This document shows, in pieces, positions 12,896 to 19,345 of a stretch of 20,000 nucleotides of DNA. Each line of letters starts with the position of its first letter. Position 1 is the first letter of the stretch. The DNA comes from an uncultured virus (IMG/VR IMGVR_UViG_3300037991_001521) (taxonomy: Duplodnaviria > Heunggongvirae > Uroviricota > Caudoviricetes > Autographiviridae): positions 45,975-65,974 of the IMG/VR virus record IMGVR_UViG_3300037991_001521. One strand, written 5' to 3'. The position numbers and the translations under genes were made by a program. The notes under the pieces were generated by a model that did not search any database, was not told where the DNA came from, and worked only from the letters and a program-made list of their open reading frames with translations.

Positions 12896-14041
12896 TCAGA
12901 ATGCAGCGTTACCAGTAGAACCGACGGCTGCACCAGCAATCAGTTCAACACAGCAAGCAGGGTTCAGATAGTCAGCGCCCATGGCGAGACGACCCAGAAG
13001 CACGTCACCTTGGTAGACCACGGAGACGTCACCGCTGGTGACCTGAACTTGAGGACCGATGGCTTCAACACAACCAGCACCTTCGCGCTGGAAGATCAAA
13101 CCACAGGAGTTAGCGAATTCGGTTTCTTCACCGTACTCGTTGTTGATGCCAGTGACATCGTTAGCAGCATCCTCAACACTTTCACCGACAAAGGAGCCAG
13201 TGTTACCAGGAGAGGTAGTGCCAGGGTTGGTAGCAGAACCAGTACCATACTTGGTACCGTAGTTGCTGAAGAACGGAATGTTCATGGACTTGAAGATCTT
13301 GATACCAGCAATCTCCACAATGCCCTGACCAGACTGCAGAGCGGCACCCTGCTCGTCACGGTTGATCAGTCCGTTGTTGCCAACTTCCTGGATCAAGGCA
13401 TAGTATTGTCGTGGGTTGAGGACCCCGACTCTGCCCTCGCTGCTGACCCCTTTTTCATCCATCGCAGCAGCGGCGTCGAAGAAAGCGGTGGTCAGCTTTT
13501 GAGCATCGTAAGCATCAGAAGCGTTAGCAGTAGCGCCAACACGAATCTGGGTGCCGCCGGGCTCAACAAAGCTAGACTTGGTAATCGGAGATGCAGCACG
13601 TGCACCACGGGTGATAGCACGGAAGATCAGACGATCATATTTCTGGGCAAGAGCATAGCCAATCTTACGGCTGATCTCAGAGCGCAGATCGTAGTGAGAC
13701 AGAGTCTCGTCAAGATCATACACGAAAGCCGAGCTGATGAGCAGGTCGTCAACCGTGATGGTCTTTTCAGCCACCGGGGGCGCACCGTCGGAGTTACCGA
13801 GGATAGCGTTTCCGGGGGTGTGGAATTCAGCAGTAGTGCGACCCGTGTAGATGAACTGCATAGATTTGCCGTTCTTCAGGGTACGCTTCATGACCAGGTC
13901 ACGAGCGATAGCATTATACTGGAATCCTTTGAACATCTCTCCAGAGAAGAGCTTCAAATAAAGAGCGCGGGCGTCTCCCGCGGAGTTAGATTGACCAGCC
14001 CTAGTTAGGGAAGTGGTCAGATCAGAAGACTGATGTGCCAT
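12896..14041 (-). CDS. gp10: Major capsid protein
   Basis: 381 aa; ALYLKLFSGEMFKGF, RTLKNGKSMQFIYTGR, EKTITVDDLLISSAFVYDLDE, YDLRSEISRKIGYALA, GRLAMGADYLNP match T7-like cyanophage capsids. Confidence 0.96.
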   Translation of the reverse strand: MAHQSSDLTTSLTRAGQSNSAGDARALYLKLFSGEMFKGFQYNAIARDLVMKRTLKNGKSMQFIYTGRTTAEFHTPGNAILGNSDGAPPVAEKTITVDDLLISSAFVYDLDETLSHYDLRSEISRKIGYALAQKYDRLIFRAITRGARAASPITKSSFVEPGGTQIRVGATANASDAYDAQKLTTAFFDAAAAMDEKGVSSEGRVGVLNPRQYYALIQEVGNNGLINRDEQGAALQSGQGIVEIAGIKIFKSMNIPFFSNYGTKYGTGSATNPGTTSPGNTGSFVGESVEDAANDVTGINNEYGEETEFANSCGLIFQREGAGCVEAIGPQVQVTSGDVSVVYQGDVLLGRLAMGADYLNPACCVELIAGAAVGSTGNAAF

Positions 14042-14073
14042 TTGTTAGGTACGAAATAAGTGTATAAGCAGTC

Positions 14074-14198
14074 TCCAAACGTTTGGAAAGGCAATGTGCC
14101 AAAATTTTTTGTGGTCTATCCCACCGTCATGACGGCGAAGGGTATCCGCGTACGGGCCAACGCCAATGCAAGGGAGGTCCGACTCTGAGGTGCCTCCC
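14074..14198 (-). promoter_or_regulatory. Structured 5' leader of the capsid gene (candidate cis-regulatory RNA or operator array)
   Basis: ~170-nt non-coding gap containing GGGAGG-N15-CCTCCC, GGCG...CCG-TACG-CGG...CGCC, perfect palindromes CCGTCATGACGG (14124-14135) and TCCAAACGTTTGGA (14074-14087), and GTGG-GATAGA-CCAC. Confidence 0.5.
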
Positions 14199-14211
14199 AA
14201 GCTGTTAAGAT

Positions 14212-14370
14212 TTAGTAGCCACGCATTTTTTTACGGGCTTCATTGATTGCGTTTTTCCTGCGTTGCAGCTTTGCAGCAGGTGAAACATTCTTTGGATTTT
14301 CTAGATGCTTTTTAACTTTGGTTTTGGCTTTACGCCCAACACCATCAAGAAAAGATTTGACAAGATCCAT
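14212..14370 (-). CDS. Small basic hypothetical protein (52 aa, MDLVKSFLDG...KKMRGY)
   Basis: ATG at 14370 lies 1 nt after the upstream TGA (14372-14374); K/R-rich; fills the gap on the coding strand. Confidence 0.6.
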   Translation of the reverse strand: MDLVKSFLDGVGRKAKTKVKKHLENPKNVSPAAKLQRRKNAINEARKKMRGY

Positions 14371-14371
14371 A

Positions 14372-14524
14372 TCAGAGGAGCCCTTTAAGACACTTTTTTT
14401 GTTTGCGACATTGTGGCTTTTTGTTACCACAGTGACCACAGCGATTGAAAACAATACTGTTATCTACAGACACAGGGTCCATCTTTGTAACAGCAGCTTT
14501 GACAACTTTAGATTGATGTGGCAT
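14372..14524 (-). CDS. Small Cys-rich basic protein (50 aa, MPHQSKVVKAAVTKMDP...RCGHCGNKKPQCRKQKKCLKGLL)
   Basis: ATG at 14524 follows an A-rich unstructured stretch; four Cys (CxxC...C...C); abuts the next ORF. Confidence 0.6.
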   Translation of the reverse strand: MPHQSKVVKAAVTKMDPVSVDNSIVFNRCGHCGNKKPQCRKQKKCLKGLL

Positions 14525-14546
14525 AATGTATTTTATTGTGTGTAGG

Positions 14547-14610
14547 CGTGGGCGCTTTCCGAACACCCACTCCTTAAACCGTTCCTTCGGGCTTTACAAT
14601 TGTGGAAAGC
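14547..14610 (-). ncRNA. Candidate structured RNA element upstream of the MPHQS peptide
   Basis: GCTTTCCACAATTGTAAAGC-CCGAAGGAACGG-TTTAAGGA-GTGGGTG-TTCGGAAAG-CGCCCAC: three possible hairpins, plus complementarity GCTTTCC/GGAAAGC and CCGAA/TTCGG. Confidence 0.4.
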
Positions 14611-14619
14611 TCTTTGTAT

Positions 14620-14733
14620 TCAGTTTTTAATTGTGCGCTTGACAATGTAAGCAACGCCCCGATACTTTAAGACAATCTCTTTTTGCTTGGCTTGCTGTTC
14701 ACGGATGCGCTGACGTACTTCAACTTGAGACAT
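14620..14733 (-). CDS. DUF4278-like 'downstream peptide' (37 aa, MSQVEVRQRIREQQAKQKEIVLKYRGVAYIVKRTIKN)
   Basis: Manual translation (below the ORF-track size cutoff); contains LKYRGVAY, the YRG motif of peptides downstream of Downstream-peptide RNAs; sits just 3' of the riboswitch. Confidence 0.85.
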   Translation of the reverse strand: MSQVEVRQRIREQQAKQKEIVLKYRGVAYIVKRTIKN

Positions 14734-14748
14734 GATTAGTTCAGAAAT

Positions 14749-14805
14749 AACCTACCCCCCGTTCCATGAGTAGGTTGCCTGCGTCCCGATAACGGGATGA
14801 ACGTA
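14749..14805 (-). ncRNA. Glutamine-II riboswitch (Downstream-peptide RNA motif)
   Basis: Minus strand: CGTTCA-TCCCG-TTAT-CGGGA-CGCAGGC-AACCTACTC-ATGGAACG-GGGGGTAGGTT. P1 CGTTC/GAACG, P2 TCCCG/CGGGA, 9-bp pseudoknot AACCTACTC/GGGTAGGTT, followed by a YRG peptide. Confidence 0.85.
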
Positions 14806-14819
14806 CGGCCTGAGTCTAA

Positions 14820-15164
14820 TTAAAAATCGTAAGTGAAGCCAACTTTTGTGCCATAGTTGTTGTCACTGTCAGCAGTCATAAACGACACTTCGCCATATGC
14901 AGACACGCTGTCTGAAAGGCTGACAGAACCTCCGACTTTGCCAGAGAATTCAAGTTCAGTGTCACCACCGTCAGGAGCGACGATGGCAGGACCTGCTTGG
15001 ACGAACCAGTTGTCCTTTTTGTAACCGACATGGTTGTCAATTACAGTGCCGCCATAGTTTGATCCAGAGAAACCAGAGTTGGCTTCCACGTTCAAATAGG
15101 GCTGGGCAGAGACTGGAGCTGCAACAGCAATGAGTGCTGCGGGGAGGAAAGCAGTGAGTTTCAT
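14820..15164 (-). CDS. Secreted small outer-membrane beta-barrel-like protein (114 aa)
   Basis: Sec signal peptide MKLTAFLPAALIAVAAPVSA, alternating amphipathic beta-strands (YLNVEAN, WFVQAGP, LEFSGKVGGSV, VSAYGEVSF), C-terminal YGTKVGFTYDF ending in Phe like a BamA beta-signal. Confidence 0.75.
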   Translation of the reverse strand: MKLTAFLPAALIAVAAPVSAQPYLNVEANSGFSGSNYGGTVIDNHVGYKKDNWFVQAGPAIVAPDGGDTELEFSGKVGGSVSLSDSVSAYGEVSFMTADSDNNYGTKVGFTYDF

Positions 15165-15173
15165 GTCAGTGTG

Positions 15174-15323
15174 TTAGCGTTTTTTGGCGGTTTTGGCAGC
15201 ACGCTTGAAGTTGGCGGCAGTCGGTGCTCCTTTGGAACCCGGCTTCCTCATCTTCTCGTTACTGCCTGCGGCGATACGACGCCGCTTAGCATGGATGTTA
15301 GCGTAGAGTCCAGGTTTTGCCAT
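15174..15323 (-). CDS. Small basic phage protein (49 aa, MAKPGLYANIHAKRRRIAAGSNEKMRKPGSKGAPTAANFKRAAKTAKKR)
   Basis: Manual translation; ATG overlaps the upstream TGA (TGATG); GLYANIHAKR...GAPTAANF resembles small hypothetical proteins I recall from marine phages. Confidence 0.8.
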   Translation of the reverse strand: MAKPGLYANIHAKRRRIAAGSNEKMRKPGSKGAPTAANFKRAAKTAKKR

Positions 15324-15490
15324 CACTTCATCCTCCGTTTACGCAATGCTGCAAAATCAGCACCGTCAATTTTCATTTTGTTACCAGCCATCCCAGCAAT
15401 CTTCTGTTGCTTAGACGACAATTTTTTGTTTTTGTTTTTATTTTTAGGCCGACCCACTTTGGAGCCGTATGTTCCAGGTCCGTAAGGCAT
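15323..15490 (-). CDS. Small basic phage protein (55 aa, MPYGPGTYGSKVGRPKNKNKNKKLSSKQQKIAGMAGNKMKIDGADFAALRKRRMK)
   Basis: Manual translation; starts 2 nt after the scaffold stop and its stop overlaps the next ATG. Confidence 0.75.
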   Translation of the reverse strand: MPYGPGTYGSKVGRPKNKNKNKKLSSKQQKIAGMAGNKMKIDGADFAALRKRRMK

Positions 15491-15492
15491 GG

Positions 15493-16245
15493 TTAAAAAT
15501 CAATGTCAGATAGTTCAAGCTTACGCATAATGTCGTTCCTGTATGCAGCGTCACGCTCGTAACGAGGATCGTTCATAGCATTGACAAGTTCAGCTTGACT
15601 GCGGAAACCTTCAGCGGAATCCGAAGCAGCCCGTCCTTGAATCAGCTCGCCTTCAGTACCCATTGAATCTTGGTACCGAAGGGCAAGTGCCTGAACAGCA
15701 AAGAAAGCAGCTTGAGTGTTACCACTCTCCATAATAGAATCATACATATCAATCTCTTGTTCGGAAAAGTTGTCCTTTGCCCAACCAAGTAGATTTGTGT
15801 ATTCACCATCACCACCAACCATATCTTTGAGCTGCGTTGCAGTCTCTTCGGTCATAGGCTCAAACGTATTTGCTTCCATCTGACGACGGTAATCAAGGTG
15901 CATCTGTGCTAGGTCAGTAGGATCGGCGTTGCTCAACTCTTCAAGAATGTCATCACTAAAATTATCATTTATTTCACCTTCCCAAAGACGGTCAAACAAA
16001 TCACTATCAGTTTCTTCAAGCTGTTGATCCTCAACTTGTTCTTCAGGCTCATCACCATCAGCGCCAAGTTTCTTTTGCAGTTCAAGGTATGCAGACTCAA
16101 GTTCTTGTGCGTTCTTATATTTGCCAGCTAGCATCTGTTCATGCTGAGCTTCTAGCTCTTCGCCTACTTGCAAAGAATCTTGTTCTTCTGCATTAAGTTC
16201 ACCCGGACCATTTTCTTCCGGGATCATAGACATTACTTCAGCCAT
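15493..16245 (-). CDS. gp9: Capsid assembly scaffolding protein
   Basis: 250 aa, very acidic; LAGKYKNAQELESAYLELQKKLG, VGGDGEY..LLGWAKDN, FRSQAELVNAMNDPRYERDAAYR; follows portal. Confidence 0.93.
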   Translation of the reverse strand: MAEVMSMIPEENGPGELNAEEQDSLQVGEELEAQHEQMLAGKYKNAQELESAYLELQKKLGADGDEPEEQVEDQQLEETDSDLFDRLWEGEINDNFSDDILEELSNADPTDLAQMHLDYRRQMEANTFEPMTEETATQLKDMVGGDGEYTNLLGWAKDNFSEQEIDMYDSIMESGNTQAAFFAVQALALRYQDSMGTEGELIQGRAASDSAEGFRSQAELVNAMNDPRYERDAAYRNDIMRKLELSDIDF

Positions 16246-16247
16246 AG

Positions 16248-17816
16248 TTAGGTGGTTTCTTGTTCGGGTGGTTGTTCTGCCATTTCAGGATTTTTAGAAG
16301 GATCCATCATCGGCGTTTTCATTGCATCAACGCTAAGTTTCTGCTGTTCAAGTTGCATCTGTTGTTGCATCTGTTGTTGGCGTTCACCCTGCACCTCTTC
16401 CATAGAACGTACAAGATTTAGTACGTCAATACCTTGAGATGCAGCAAGACGTTTGATGACTTCGTCAGTGTTAATAAACTGTGCAATGGACTCAGGTCCT
16501 AGAGTCTGTGCCAGTGTTGTCAGGAATGAACCAAGGCTTTCACGATCTTGGCCGCGGCCTAGTGCGTTGACACCTGCAACAATAGTAGGCTTGACAATGT
16601 TCTTAGGAATGCGTGGGATCTCACCCTTACGCTGTGCTTCACTAAGTTTTCGATTGAGATAAGGAACAAGAAAGTCAACAGTCAGCAAACTAAACAAGCC
16701 ACCGAGTTGTTGTTCCAGTTCCATTTGTGTCATACGTACCTCCTCTGCAGTTGTACGTTCTGATTGCCTGACATTGAGAATCAGAAACGCTTCGCTAAGG
16801 CGACGTTCTAATACTTGTGTCATTTCAAATGCAGTTCGGAAGTCTGCAGTCTTACCAACTTGCACAACACCCACGTCATCAGGACGACCCTGAATAATTG
16901 CACCGTTGCCTGCAGCTGCAAGTGTACTGGGTTTGGTTGTACTAGAAGGGCTGACAGTAAACACAACCTTAGCGGCTGCTGCACTGCCTTCAACCAAAGC
17001 TTGGCTAAGACCTTCTAAAGACTTAAGGTCACCAATAAATTGACCAACCCTGCCACGTCCATAGCTTTCACCATCGACTGTGTTGAATCGCAGGGGAATC
17101 CAAGGGGTGTTGTTAATAGGTGACTTGCCTTGCGAACCTTTAATAATTTTGTCAGACACTTCTTGGTGCCAAACAAACCTGTTGTTGTCACGCTTGACAT
17201 GTGTATATACATCAATGTCATCAGCGTAGGAGCCTTCTTCACTCACACTTTTCGTGTCAGCAAAGAAATCTTTGGGCAGTTGATCCCGAAGGATTCGTTT
17301 TGAAATACGTTCTTTTGTAATTATTTCAACTACTTGACCGTTGCCGTCCCGATCCACAACGTAGCGATTCAAAGGGTAGACTTTTAATCCATTCTTGCTC
17401 ATAAAAATCATAGCGTTTCCTGCGACAACCAAATGCAACAAAGCTTGATGCACCGCAACACGGTCATCAGACGCAGCAATTGATTCTAGAATGATACGTT
17501 CGATTTTTGCAAAAGACAAATCAAGTTCGGATTTGATTTCTGGTCCGAAATCTTGACCCAACTGACTTTCGTCAAGTTGCAATTTAAAGAAACTGGTTTG
17601 CACAGGGAGTAGCGCCAGCATCAACTTTGATGCCAGCGTCACACAGCCCTTCGCCCCAACGCTTTGGTATGGTGTCTTCAATTGTTTCATGCCCATGGTG
17701 TATTCTTCATGACCACGAATCAAGTATGGAAGTGTCAGTTCTGATGCTTGACGTGCTTCTTCAAGAAACTGGGAACGGTCGCTAGTTAAATAATCATATC
17801 GTGTACGTGCAGACAT
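16248..17816 (-). CDS. gp8: Head-to-tail connector (portal)
   Basis: 522 aa; PYQSVGAKGCVTLASKLMLALLP, PWIPLRFNTVDGESYGRGRV, RQSERTTAEEVR are gp8-type motifs. Confidence 0.96.
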   Translation of the reverse strand: MSARTRYDYLTSDRSQFLEEARQASELTLPYLIRGHEEYTMGMKQLKTPYQSVGAKGCVTLASKLMLALLPVQTSFFKLQLDESQLGQDFGPEIKSELDLSFAKIERIILESIAASDDRVAVHQALLHLVVAGNAMIFMSKNGLKVYPLNRYVVDRDGNGQVVEIITKERISKRILRDQLPKDFFADTKSVSEEGSYADDIDVYTHVKRDNNRFVWHQEVSDKIIKGSQGKSPINNTPWIPLRFNTVDGESYGRGRVGQFIGDLKSLEGLSQALVEGSAAAAKVVFTVSPSSTTKPSTLAAAGNGAIIQGRPDDVGVVQVGKTADFRTAFEMTQVLERRLSEAFLILNVRQSERTTAEEVRMTQMELEQQLGGLFSLLTVDFLVPYLNRKLSEAQRKGEIPRIPKNIVKPTIVAGVNALGRGQDRESLGSFLTTLAQTLGPESIAQFINTDEVIKRLAASQGIDVLNLVRSMEEVQGERQQQMQQQMQLEQQKLSVDAMKTPMMDPSKNPEMAEQPPEQETT

Positions 17817-18651: not shown

Positions 18652-19345
18652 TGTTACTGTGTTCAAAGAAAGCTGGCACTCGTGATGCTCGTGTAAAGGT
18701 AAGCTCAGGAGCTTTGCCTTCATACATTAGACGGTCGCTAGAATCCAGCCAAAATTTTTTGTTCAAATATTTATTGGGGTTTGTTGCAGACAGTGGCTGC
18801 AGCACCCAATTTATAGTTGCCTTCCTGAGACGATCAAGAGAAGGACTGATGTTATACCCCAGCTCAGTATGAACCAAACTATTGGTAGCCACGTGAATTT
18901 GCTCATCTCTACTTATGTCTGCGGAAACTGTTCGCATTCCAGAGTCACCAACAGCGCGAAAGAGTGGTAGAAGAACGAAGAAAATTGCACGCTCAGCGAC
19001 CATGGCCTTAGTGATTGTATGATCCGGATGCGCTGTCCAAGCATCACGGAGCCGTAACGCTTCGGCCTCAGCTTTCTCATCAACCCCGTGAGCATTGGCA
19101 ATGTAACCAAGTGCGAGATCATGTTTTTCCTCGTCTTTGACGTTGGACAGTAGTAGCTCACGCGCCAACGGCGGTACTTCGGTAGATAACGCTTCATTAA
19201 TAAACTCTCCCACAGGCAGTTCCATATGTCTGATGGCAAGAGCACGTTTCAATACTTCTTCGGCCCCCTCCTTTACTGTACCAGCAGTTGTTTGTACTGG
19301 TGTCCAGGTTCTTTTTCGTTCGTGTAGTTTTTGATACGGGTTCAT
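18629..19345 (-). CDS. nrdB: Ribonucleotide reductase class I beta subunit-like ferritin-fold protein (cyanopodovirus type)
   Basis: Dimetal ligand pattern E(LPVGEF)...DEEKH...E(RAIFF)...DEQIH; ATGA overlap with the RNR alpha stop. Confidence 0.75.
   Translation of the reverse strand: MNPYQKLHERKRTWTPVQTTAGTVKEGAEEVLKRALAIRHMELPVGEFINEALSTEVPPLARELLLSNVKDEEKHDLALGYIANAHGVDEKAEAEALRLRDAWTAHPDHTITKAMVAERAIFFVLLPLFRAVGDSGMRTVSADISRDEQIHVATNSLVHTELGYNISPSLDRLRKATINWVLQPLSATNPNKYLNKKFWLDSSDRLMYEGKAPELTFTRASRVPAFFEHSNNDLPKYA

Follow-up and report, generated by a model that had tools for sequence, protein, structure and literature searches.

A Glutamine-II aptamer and YRG peptide in a late phage operon

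We analysed a stretch of 20,000 nucleotides (nt) from an uncultured virus (IMG/VR record IMGVR_UViG_3300037991_001521, positions 45,975 to 65,974), hereafter the window, for a riboswitch of the Glutamine-II family and the short open reading frame (ORF) that follows it. The gene content identifies the window as the minus-strand structural operon of a T7-like cyanopodovirus, with the genes for portal, scaffold, major capsid and tail tube in T7 order on one strand (PF12236, PF05396, PF21703 and PF17212), and the closest database record is an uncultured Autographiviridae phage. The order on the minus strand is portal, scaffold, two small ORFs, a gene for an outer-membrane-protein-like (OMP-like) product, the riboswitch with its peptide ORF, a small ORF with a CxxC pair, capsid, and tail tube A and B. 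The original prediction, made from the letters of the window alone, had placed the element in the head operon of a phage, and the Pfam matches bear this out, as the element lies between the scaffold and capsid genes.

The Rfam covariance model of the Glutamine-II family (RF01704), the check that the original prediction had proposed, aligns from end to end (model positions 1-60 of 60) with 14806..14750 on the minus strand, at 59.5 bits (E = 2.3e-12), against a gathering score of 33 bits; no other Rfam family exceeds its cut-off in the 20-kb window. The three pairings that had been predicted were recovered in place together with the ORF, all on the minus strand, which had been left unsaid. The claim of a complete fold of the Downstream-peptide type holds in that all three helices exist, but their labels were swapped relative to the nomenclature of Huang 2019 (PMC6698751): what had been called P1 (CGTTC/GAACG) is the pseudoknot (PK), what had been called P2 (TCCCG/CGGGA) is P1, and the supposed pseudoknot of 9 base pairs (bp) is P2.

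Within the aptamer (14750..14806, minus strand), the PK 5' strand CGUUC (14799..14803) pairs with GGAACG in the loop of P2 and carries C1 and G2 in crystal numbering, both of them ligand contacts (Huang 2019, PMC6698751). It is followed by the P1 hairpin, UCCCG-UUAU-CGGGA (14784..14797), which is placed by the RF01704 alignment and by an alignment of the window's clade, and by the linking strand CGCA (14780..14783), which corresponds to C17, G18 and C19. P2 (14750..14775), placed by the RF01704 alignment and by covariation, is a nested hairpin of 8-9 bp, AACCUACUC/GGGUAGGUU, whose loop AUGGAACGG donates the PK 3' strand (14760-14764). In the crystal structure G18 forms a base triple and C19 a long-range pair, and the long-range pair C19:G41 and A33:G42 are among the conserved nucleotides of the glutamine site (Huang 2019, PMC6698751). 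The CGUUCA, CGC and A..GGAACGGG of the window are the conserved ligand-site nucleotides of that structure; inspection by eye of CGUUCA ... CGCA ... CAUGGAACGGG found C1, G2, G18, C19, A33, C39, G40, G41 and G42 all in place. Judged from its sequence, the element is a genuine and complete Glutamine-II aptamer, with all helices and all published ligand-contact nucleotides.

The nested folding energy of the element is no better than chance (minimum free energy -25.1 kcal/mol, z = -0.47, with 63 of 200 shuffles equal or better), so the case beyond chance is made by the covariance-model score together with conservation and covariation in relatives. A chance match was rejected on the E-value of 2.3e-12 plus conservation. 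Host contamination of the contig was also rejected, as phage structural genes flank the element on both sides on the same strand.

A linker of 16 nt (14734..14749), which in this lineage is without a GGAG-type Shine-Dalgarno sequence, separates the last aligned base of the aptamer from an ATG at 14733. As had been predicted, this start codon opens an ORF with a YRG motif, which occupies 14620..14733 on the minus strand, stop codon included, and encodes a single-repeat peptide of 37 amino acids (aa), MSQVEVRQRIREQQAKQKEIVLKYRGVAYIVKRTIKN, with one YRG motif. The ratio of non-synonymous to synonymous change (pN/pS) is 0.12, pooled pairwise over 16 unique variants of the ORF from the window's clade, and in 128 unique viral ORFs, among the matches listed, synonymous variation occurs at the Y, R and G residues (2, 6 and 4 different codons, respectively). 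These patterns indicate that the YRG peptide is under purifying selection at the protein level in many T7-like cyanophages. The records of S-TIP37 and MedDCM-OCT-S28-C3 annotate the homologous ORF; those of P-SSP7, S-CBP1, S-CBP4, S-RIP1 and NATL2A-133 contain it without annotation.

Distribution and covariation among cyanophages

A blastn search with the 196-base unit returned 22 phage records, all of them cyanophages, and RF01704 scored above its cut-off in 10 of 13 related records, including P-SSP7. It did so at all eight loci picked from the blastn matches, a biased sample (the second copy in the window's own record, MedDCM-OCT-S28-C3, S-CBP1, S-CBP4, S-TIP37, S-RIP1, P-SSP7 and NATL2A-133), and in two of five further isolates, S-RIP2 and KBS-P-1A (56.1 bits each); no RF01704 element was found in Syn5 and P60, another two of these five. 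The nine loci that were examined first all have an ATG 15-16 nt past the aptamer, and in each it opens a YRG ORF of 17-38 aa.

A strict aptamer pattern matched at least 120 IMG/VR loci, and the counts given from here on refer to the matches listed. With the window and seven related loci these make 128 pattern matches. In 116 of them a YRG ORF starts with ATG within 45 nt; of the other 12, most have a GTG start or an ORF cut by the end of the locus. The upstream neighbour in the 120 IMG/VR loci was psbA (67), hli (16), OMP (3), scaffold (2), another gene (3) or none (29), and the downstream neighbour was capsid (31), OMP (18), the CxxC ORF (8) or none recognised within 400 nt (63), with the best-matching neighbours all on the same strand as the element. 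The cassette is a regular component of the accessory island that separates scaffold from capsid.

Both hairpins vary in sequence while retaining their pairing. P2 has 6-8 bp in each of 110 unique viral cores, with 46 distinct 5' strands and a mean of 7.6 bp, against 4.8 bp when partners are swapped; P1 occurs as 83 distinct hairpins in the same cores, with a mean of 4.2 consecutive pairs against 2.7 after swapping. In an alignment of 29 sequences from the window's clade, 95.1% of cells are paired and the covariation score was reached by none of 500 shuffles, a control that is inflated by the relatedness of the sequences. Paired cells amount to 100% for PK, 99.1% for P1 and 99.6% for P2, and two pairs of P2 are changed on both sides; the PK 5' strand CGUUC is invariant in all 29 sequences, and PK thus gives no covariation evidence. 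Taken together, the alignments indicate that the unit of aptamer and ORF is conserved, with helix covariation, in many T7-like cyanophages.

The same loci bear on the possibility that the short ORF is a leader acting in cis, in which the passage of ribosomes alters the stability or translation of the mRNA for the downstream small ORF or capsid and the product itself is irrelevant. Some of the peptides are only 13-17 aa long and in NATL2A-133 the ATG of the next gene lies 5 nt past the peptide stop, as this would have it. However, YRG is kept at the protein level through synonymous changes (pN/pS 0.12), the downstream neighbour and its distance vary among loci, and the next start in the window is at least 53 nt from the peptide stop, and we regard a leader of this kind as improbable. 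The earlier suggestion that the element tunes late-gene output finds no consistent support either, since the distance and identity of the next gene vary between phages. The gene that follows in NATL2A-133 is an OMP homologue, gp222, which stands downstream of the riboswitch there and upstream of it in the window.

Phage copies and known glutamine riboswitches

Host loci found by the same pattern number at least 120, all from Prochlorococcus or Synechococcus. Host Glutamine-II units, such as the yfr6-type leader of MED4, share with the window the aptamer, the ligand-site nucleotides and the place before a short YRG ORF. They are, however, stand-alone units, whereas the copy in the window is intercistronic, has no NtcA box and precedes a single-repeat peptide that falls below the DUF4278 cut-off. 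An NtcA box has the consensus GTAN8TAC; a box of this type lies within 80 nt upstream of 5 of 120 viral and 103 of 120 host loci. Conversely, a long same-strand ORF ends within 60 nt upstream at 86 of 113 viral loci, as against 9 of 118 host loci, and at 64 of those 86 it ends 4-9 nt before the aptamer. Host peptides are mostly of 33 aa (two YRG repeats) or 57 aa (three), and viral peptides have one repeat and 13-21 aa or about 29-42 aa.

The window element fails the test for a host-type unit, having no NtcA-type box nearby and an adjoining upstream gene, the OMP-like gene, whose stop codon is 13 nt ahead of the aptamer. No NtcA-type motif was found near the element (the window has five, against 3.2 expected, each more than 2 kb away) and the minus strand from 14000 to 16300 yielded no sigma-70-like site; nothing therefore points to a promoter of its own. 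As phage copies are without an NtcA box or promoter of their own and lie a few bases past an upstream stop codon, they are presumably read from polycistronic phage mRNA.

This remodelling weighs on a further explanation, namely that the cassette is a functionless passenger acquired from host DNA along with psbA and hli. Its location in a host-derived accessory island between the scaffold and capsid genes, its absence from Syn5 and P60 and its half-loss in S-SBP1 would all fit such an origin. Against it stand helix covariation and purifying selection across many diverged lineages, and the consistency with which the unit has been remodelled (NtcA box lost, tight packing behind the upstream gene, single-repeat peptide); we consider a mere passenger very improbable indeed.

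A copy of the element in P-SSP7 is already on record, as the row NC_006882.1/19588-19642 of the Downstream-peptide alignment of Weinberg 2010 (Additional file 5), and scores 48.1 bits against RF01704. P-SSP7, like the phage of the window, is a T7-like cyanophage, and it carries this RNA family at the same place, ahead of the capsid gene. It differs in having a 17-aa peptide, GGAG before the ATG, and the element behind a small gene that follows psbA; the record of the window is without psbA. The element itself is thus of a kind already known from hosts and P-SSP7, in a family described in 2010, and what is newly added is that T7-like cyanophages carry it regularly and in a remodelled context, together with a candidate flank helix, described below.

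The type 1 glutamine riboswitch (glnA RNA, RF01739; gifB/IF17 in Synechocystis) binds the same ligand in a nearly identical pocket (Huang 2019, PMC6698751), and it too controls a small protein, one carrying DUF4278; its fold, in contrast, is a three-way junction and not a pseudoknot. The C-terminal, IF7-like part of IF17 inactivates glutamine synthetase, and the short YRG/IF17-like proteins of the host are without it, according to Klahn 2018 (PMC6212724). The analogy with IF17 is a weak one, as even the short forms of the host lack the region for binding glutamine synthetase.

According to McCown 2017 (PMC5473149), riboswitches are rare in phage genomes, and the count given there for glutamine aptamers in cyanophages is two, in two genomes. 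Two further papers (PMC9964418, PMC9602691) mention glutamine riboswitches in T4-like cyanophages, and one of the glnA type is described in Melnitz-like myophages (PMC9004378). The T4-like cyanophage and Melnitz-like cassettes are likewise phage-borne glutamine aptamers; the window, for its part, has a single Glutamine-II aptamer between two late genes. Klahn 2018 (PMC6212724) calls these riboswitches exclusive to cyanobacteria and mentions phages nowhere. A search of the literature for a native riboswitch in T7-like cyanophages found no text on the subject, only synthetic theophylline switches or unrelated matter.

Proposed control of peptide translation and the candidate flank helix

The Glutamine-II element of MED4 is an ON switch, reporter output rising with glutamine (Klahn 2018, PMC6212724; Huang 2019, PMC6698751), and its ligand stabilises PK, with a proposed competition against a structure that occludes the ribosome-binding site (Huang 2019, PMC6698751). 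We consider it likely that the window holds a functional type-2 glutamine riboswitch in the late operon of a T7-like cyanopodovirus, controlling translation of the YRG peptide in response to glutamine. L-glutamine would stabilise the pseudoknot and thereby change ribosome initiation on the peptide ORF, the control acting on translation of this ORF within a polycistronic late phage mRNA. By analogy with MED4 the ON direction is the more likely, so that high glutamine in the infected cell would give more peptide. In the window's clade, the stretch before the start codon, which is the site of the Shine-Dalgarno sequence in sister lineages, may pair with a flank that overlaps the upstream stop codon; because of this pairing, translation of the peptide is probably also coupled to that of the upstream gene.

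We refer to this candidate flank-linker helix as P0. According to duplex energies, its 5' strand (14807..14820, minus strand) consists of AUUAG (14820-14816), UCAG (14813-14810) and GCC (14809-14807), and its 3' strand (14735..14744) of CUGA (14744-14741) and CUAAU (14739-14735), ending 2 nt short of the ATG. The first base of this 5' flank is also the last of the upstream stop codon, and the flank has possible partners both in the linker and in a GGC of the aptamer. Over the whole viral set, pairing between the linker and the 22 nt ahead of the aptamer averages -5.46 kcal/mol, compared with -4.52 (s.d. 0.15) for swapped partners, whereas host loci gave no signal (-5.56 vs -5.46 swapped). A clade-specific pattern added 43 loci, with 28 unique combinations of flank and linker, and all 28 form a helix of -6.5 to -19.4 kcal/mol. 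In this clade the first base of the 5' strand falls at or inside the upstream stop codon, and the other strand lies over the GGAG of sister lineages or, in the window, over bases -12 to -2. The clade mean is -8.84, against -4.25 for shuffled linkers (none of 100 shuffle sets as low), and 17 of 29 clade sequences beat at least 95% of their own shuffles. In the P0 columns 82.8% of cells are paired and two of six core pairs are changed on both sides. The helix is absent or weak in P-SSP7-type lineages (about -3.5 kcal/mol), and P-SSP7 itself, at -3.5 kcal/mol, has no strong one. On balance we lean, if only slightly, towards regarding it as real and as a sign of coupling to upstream translation. 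The linkers of S-RIP2 and KBS-P-1A contain CUCC and GGAG a few bases apart. These make a local hairpin that could mask the Shine-Dalgarno sequence, a solution other than the flank helix proposed for the clade of the window.

Several observations weigh against a glutamine switch that works as outlined above. The first concern P0 itself: its energy in the window is a weak -6.8 kcal/mol, a value matched by 35 of 1000 shuffled linkers, its register differs between subclades, and RNAalifold did not recover it from the clade alignment, giving instead an invariant GCC/GGC pairing and an alternative CGUUC/GGACG hairpin, both without covariation. In nested folding, which says nothing on the direction of a switch, the accessibility of positions -13 to +3 is the same with the PK strands free or blocked (0.43 and 0.43), so that simple competition between secondary structures does not explain the switch in the window's clade. 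P0 may moreover form alongside the bound fold; the direction would then be OFF or independent of the ligand. As to initiation, the linker of the window is without GGAG, and a Shine-Dalgarno-like word is present at 84 of 109 viral loci.

Other points concern the peptide and its sensor. Membership of DUF4278 (PF14105), for which the original prediction had proposed a profile search, was not borne out: the match has 18.3 bits (E = 0.0031) and covers profile positions 37-57 of 57 only, against a gathering cut-off of 25.3 bits. Among unique viral peptides of at least 20 aa, 42 of 43 miss the cut-off, whereas 19 of 25 host peptides, a sample from 66 unique ones, pass it as against one of the 43 viral; sub-threshold matches were obtained for 27 more of the viral peptides, almost all of them at the end of the profile, in its last 20-odd positions. 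In S-SBP1 (record 19145-19178) the aptamer is reduced to its 3' half (model 25-60, 19.6 bits), the CGUUCA strand and P1 being gone, and an intact YRG ORF of 35 aa lies 17 nt past this half-aptamer. By its sequence this is a natural sensor-less variant, and the peptide can apparently be retained without sensing.

The RNA libraries add little to the case. Contigs from three studies are relatives of the region (90-99% likeness), one spanning 14421 to 14839 and another 14686 to 15003, and they prove neither transcription, strand nor ends; these data are contigs without starts or expression levels, in which uncovered parts are meaningless. In six RNA runs only 8-10% of the sampled words were present, and the comparison of contigs covered four of these runs. 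Compared with 14628-14745 of the window, 80-116 bases of the peptide ORF region are replaced in RNA-library contigs of relatives, which fits a shorter form of the peptide (28 aa, starting MSQTAQKKE) seen in the scan of the 43 clade loci.

A rival account is that the aptamer binds glutamine and is, in this clade, an OFF switch or no switch at all. P0 would then keep the start site shut, ribosomes terminating on the upstream gene would be the main drivers of peptide production, and glutamine would stabilise the closed state or leave it as it is. The presence of the helix in all 28 unique clade combinations, the start of its 5' strand at or within the upstream stop codon, and a start region whose accessibility is unaffected by blocking the PK strands all favour this account. 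So does the geometry that we infer from Huang 2019 (PMC6698751), in which the 5' tail exits at the junction of PK and P2, where 5 + 4 unpaired nucleotides could allow P0 beside P2. However, the sole Glutamine-II element tested, that of MED4, was ON (Klahn 2018, PMC6212724), RNAalifold does not predict P0, and P0 is absent or weak in P-SSP7-type lineages; we judge this account unlikely, and retain the glutamine-responsive switch as the preferred reading.

A more elaborate and quite tentative extension of that preferred reading is a gate with two inputs, in which the peptide is made only if the upstream gene is translated and glutamine is above a threshold, and then acts on a target in host nitrogen metabolism or translation. 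On this view T7-like cyanophages would have converted the nitrogen-sensing unit of the host into such a gate, with a minimal single-repeat YRG peptide as its output. Ribosomes ending on the upstream late or photosynthesis gene would open the flank helix that hides the start site, and the peptide would keep the supply of amino acids matched to capsid synthesis. Translational coupling of this general kind operates in the RNA phage MS2, in which a long-range helix hides a start site until an upstream ribosome has passed. P0 would likewise overlap the upstream stop codon with its 5' strand and cover the stretch before the start with its 3' strand; in contrast with that of MS2, the helix in the window is a candidate from energies and partial covariation.

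It appears that Glutamine-II is a regular accessory of psbA-carrying T7-like cyanophages, the laboratory models P-SSP7 and S-TIP37 among them, where it stands beside photosynthesis genes. If the element works, the phage would read host glutamine, the main nitrogen signal of the cell, during late infection. That the peptide modulates nitrogen assimilation, as the original prediction proposed, is a conjecture, and only the analogy with the host's own riboswitch-controlled YRG peptides lends plausibility to an effect on host nitrogen metabolism. Among the natural forms of the unit the phage versions are the smallest, with a single-repeat peptide, of 13-17 residues in some cases, and no promoter of their own, and these small forms could offer a convenient handle on the role of the many riboswitch-controlled YRG peptides of the host.

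The remaining genes of the operon lie on the minus strand on either side of the element. The portal gene is at 17816..16248 (PF12236) and the scaffold (capsid assembly) gene at 15493..16245 (PF05396, 34.2 bits). The gene immediately upstream of the element (14820..15164) encodes a 114-aa beta-barrel protein resembling cyanophage outer-membrane proteins (PF24653, 126.2 bits, E = 1.1e-36), with an N-terminus like a signal peptide. Downstream, the small CxxC ORF (14372..14566; 64 aa as listed) has no Pfam match and is conserved in relatives: it is kept in the other copy within the record and occurs as a coding sequence of 195 nt in MedDCM-OCT-S28-C3, and its true start is perhaps an internal ATG. 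The major capsid gene follows at 12896..14041 (PF21703, Gp10A-like, 247.8 bits). Between the peptide stop and the next ORF, at 14548-14570 on the minus strand, a G+C-rich hairpin of 7 bp (one G-U, 9-nt loop) with no U-run after it was noted by eye.

Two strong sigma-70-like sites are present on the plus strand, antisense to the operon: TTGACA-17-CATAAT with TG at 14499-14527 (11/12) and TTGACA-16-GATACT at 14639-14666 (10/12). Transcripts from these sites would cross the peptide ORF and the riboswitch in antisense; the site at 14499-14527 falls in conserved codons of the CxxC ORF, so coding may explain it.

The virus record from which the window is taken has 65,974 bases, or about 1.45 podovirus genome lengths, and its last 10.4 kb (positions 55574-65974) align to 10404-20980, shifted by about 45.2 kb, with an identity of only 67-87%. 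The duplicated part has a second and different Glutamine-II copy (47 bits), there without an OMP-like gene before the riboswitch. The record looks like an assembly join of two related phage genomes, or a concatemer of variants.

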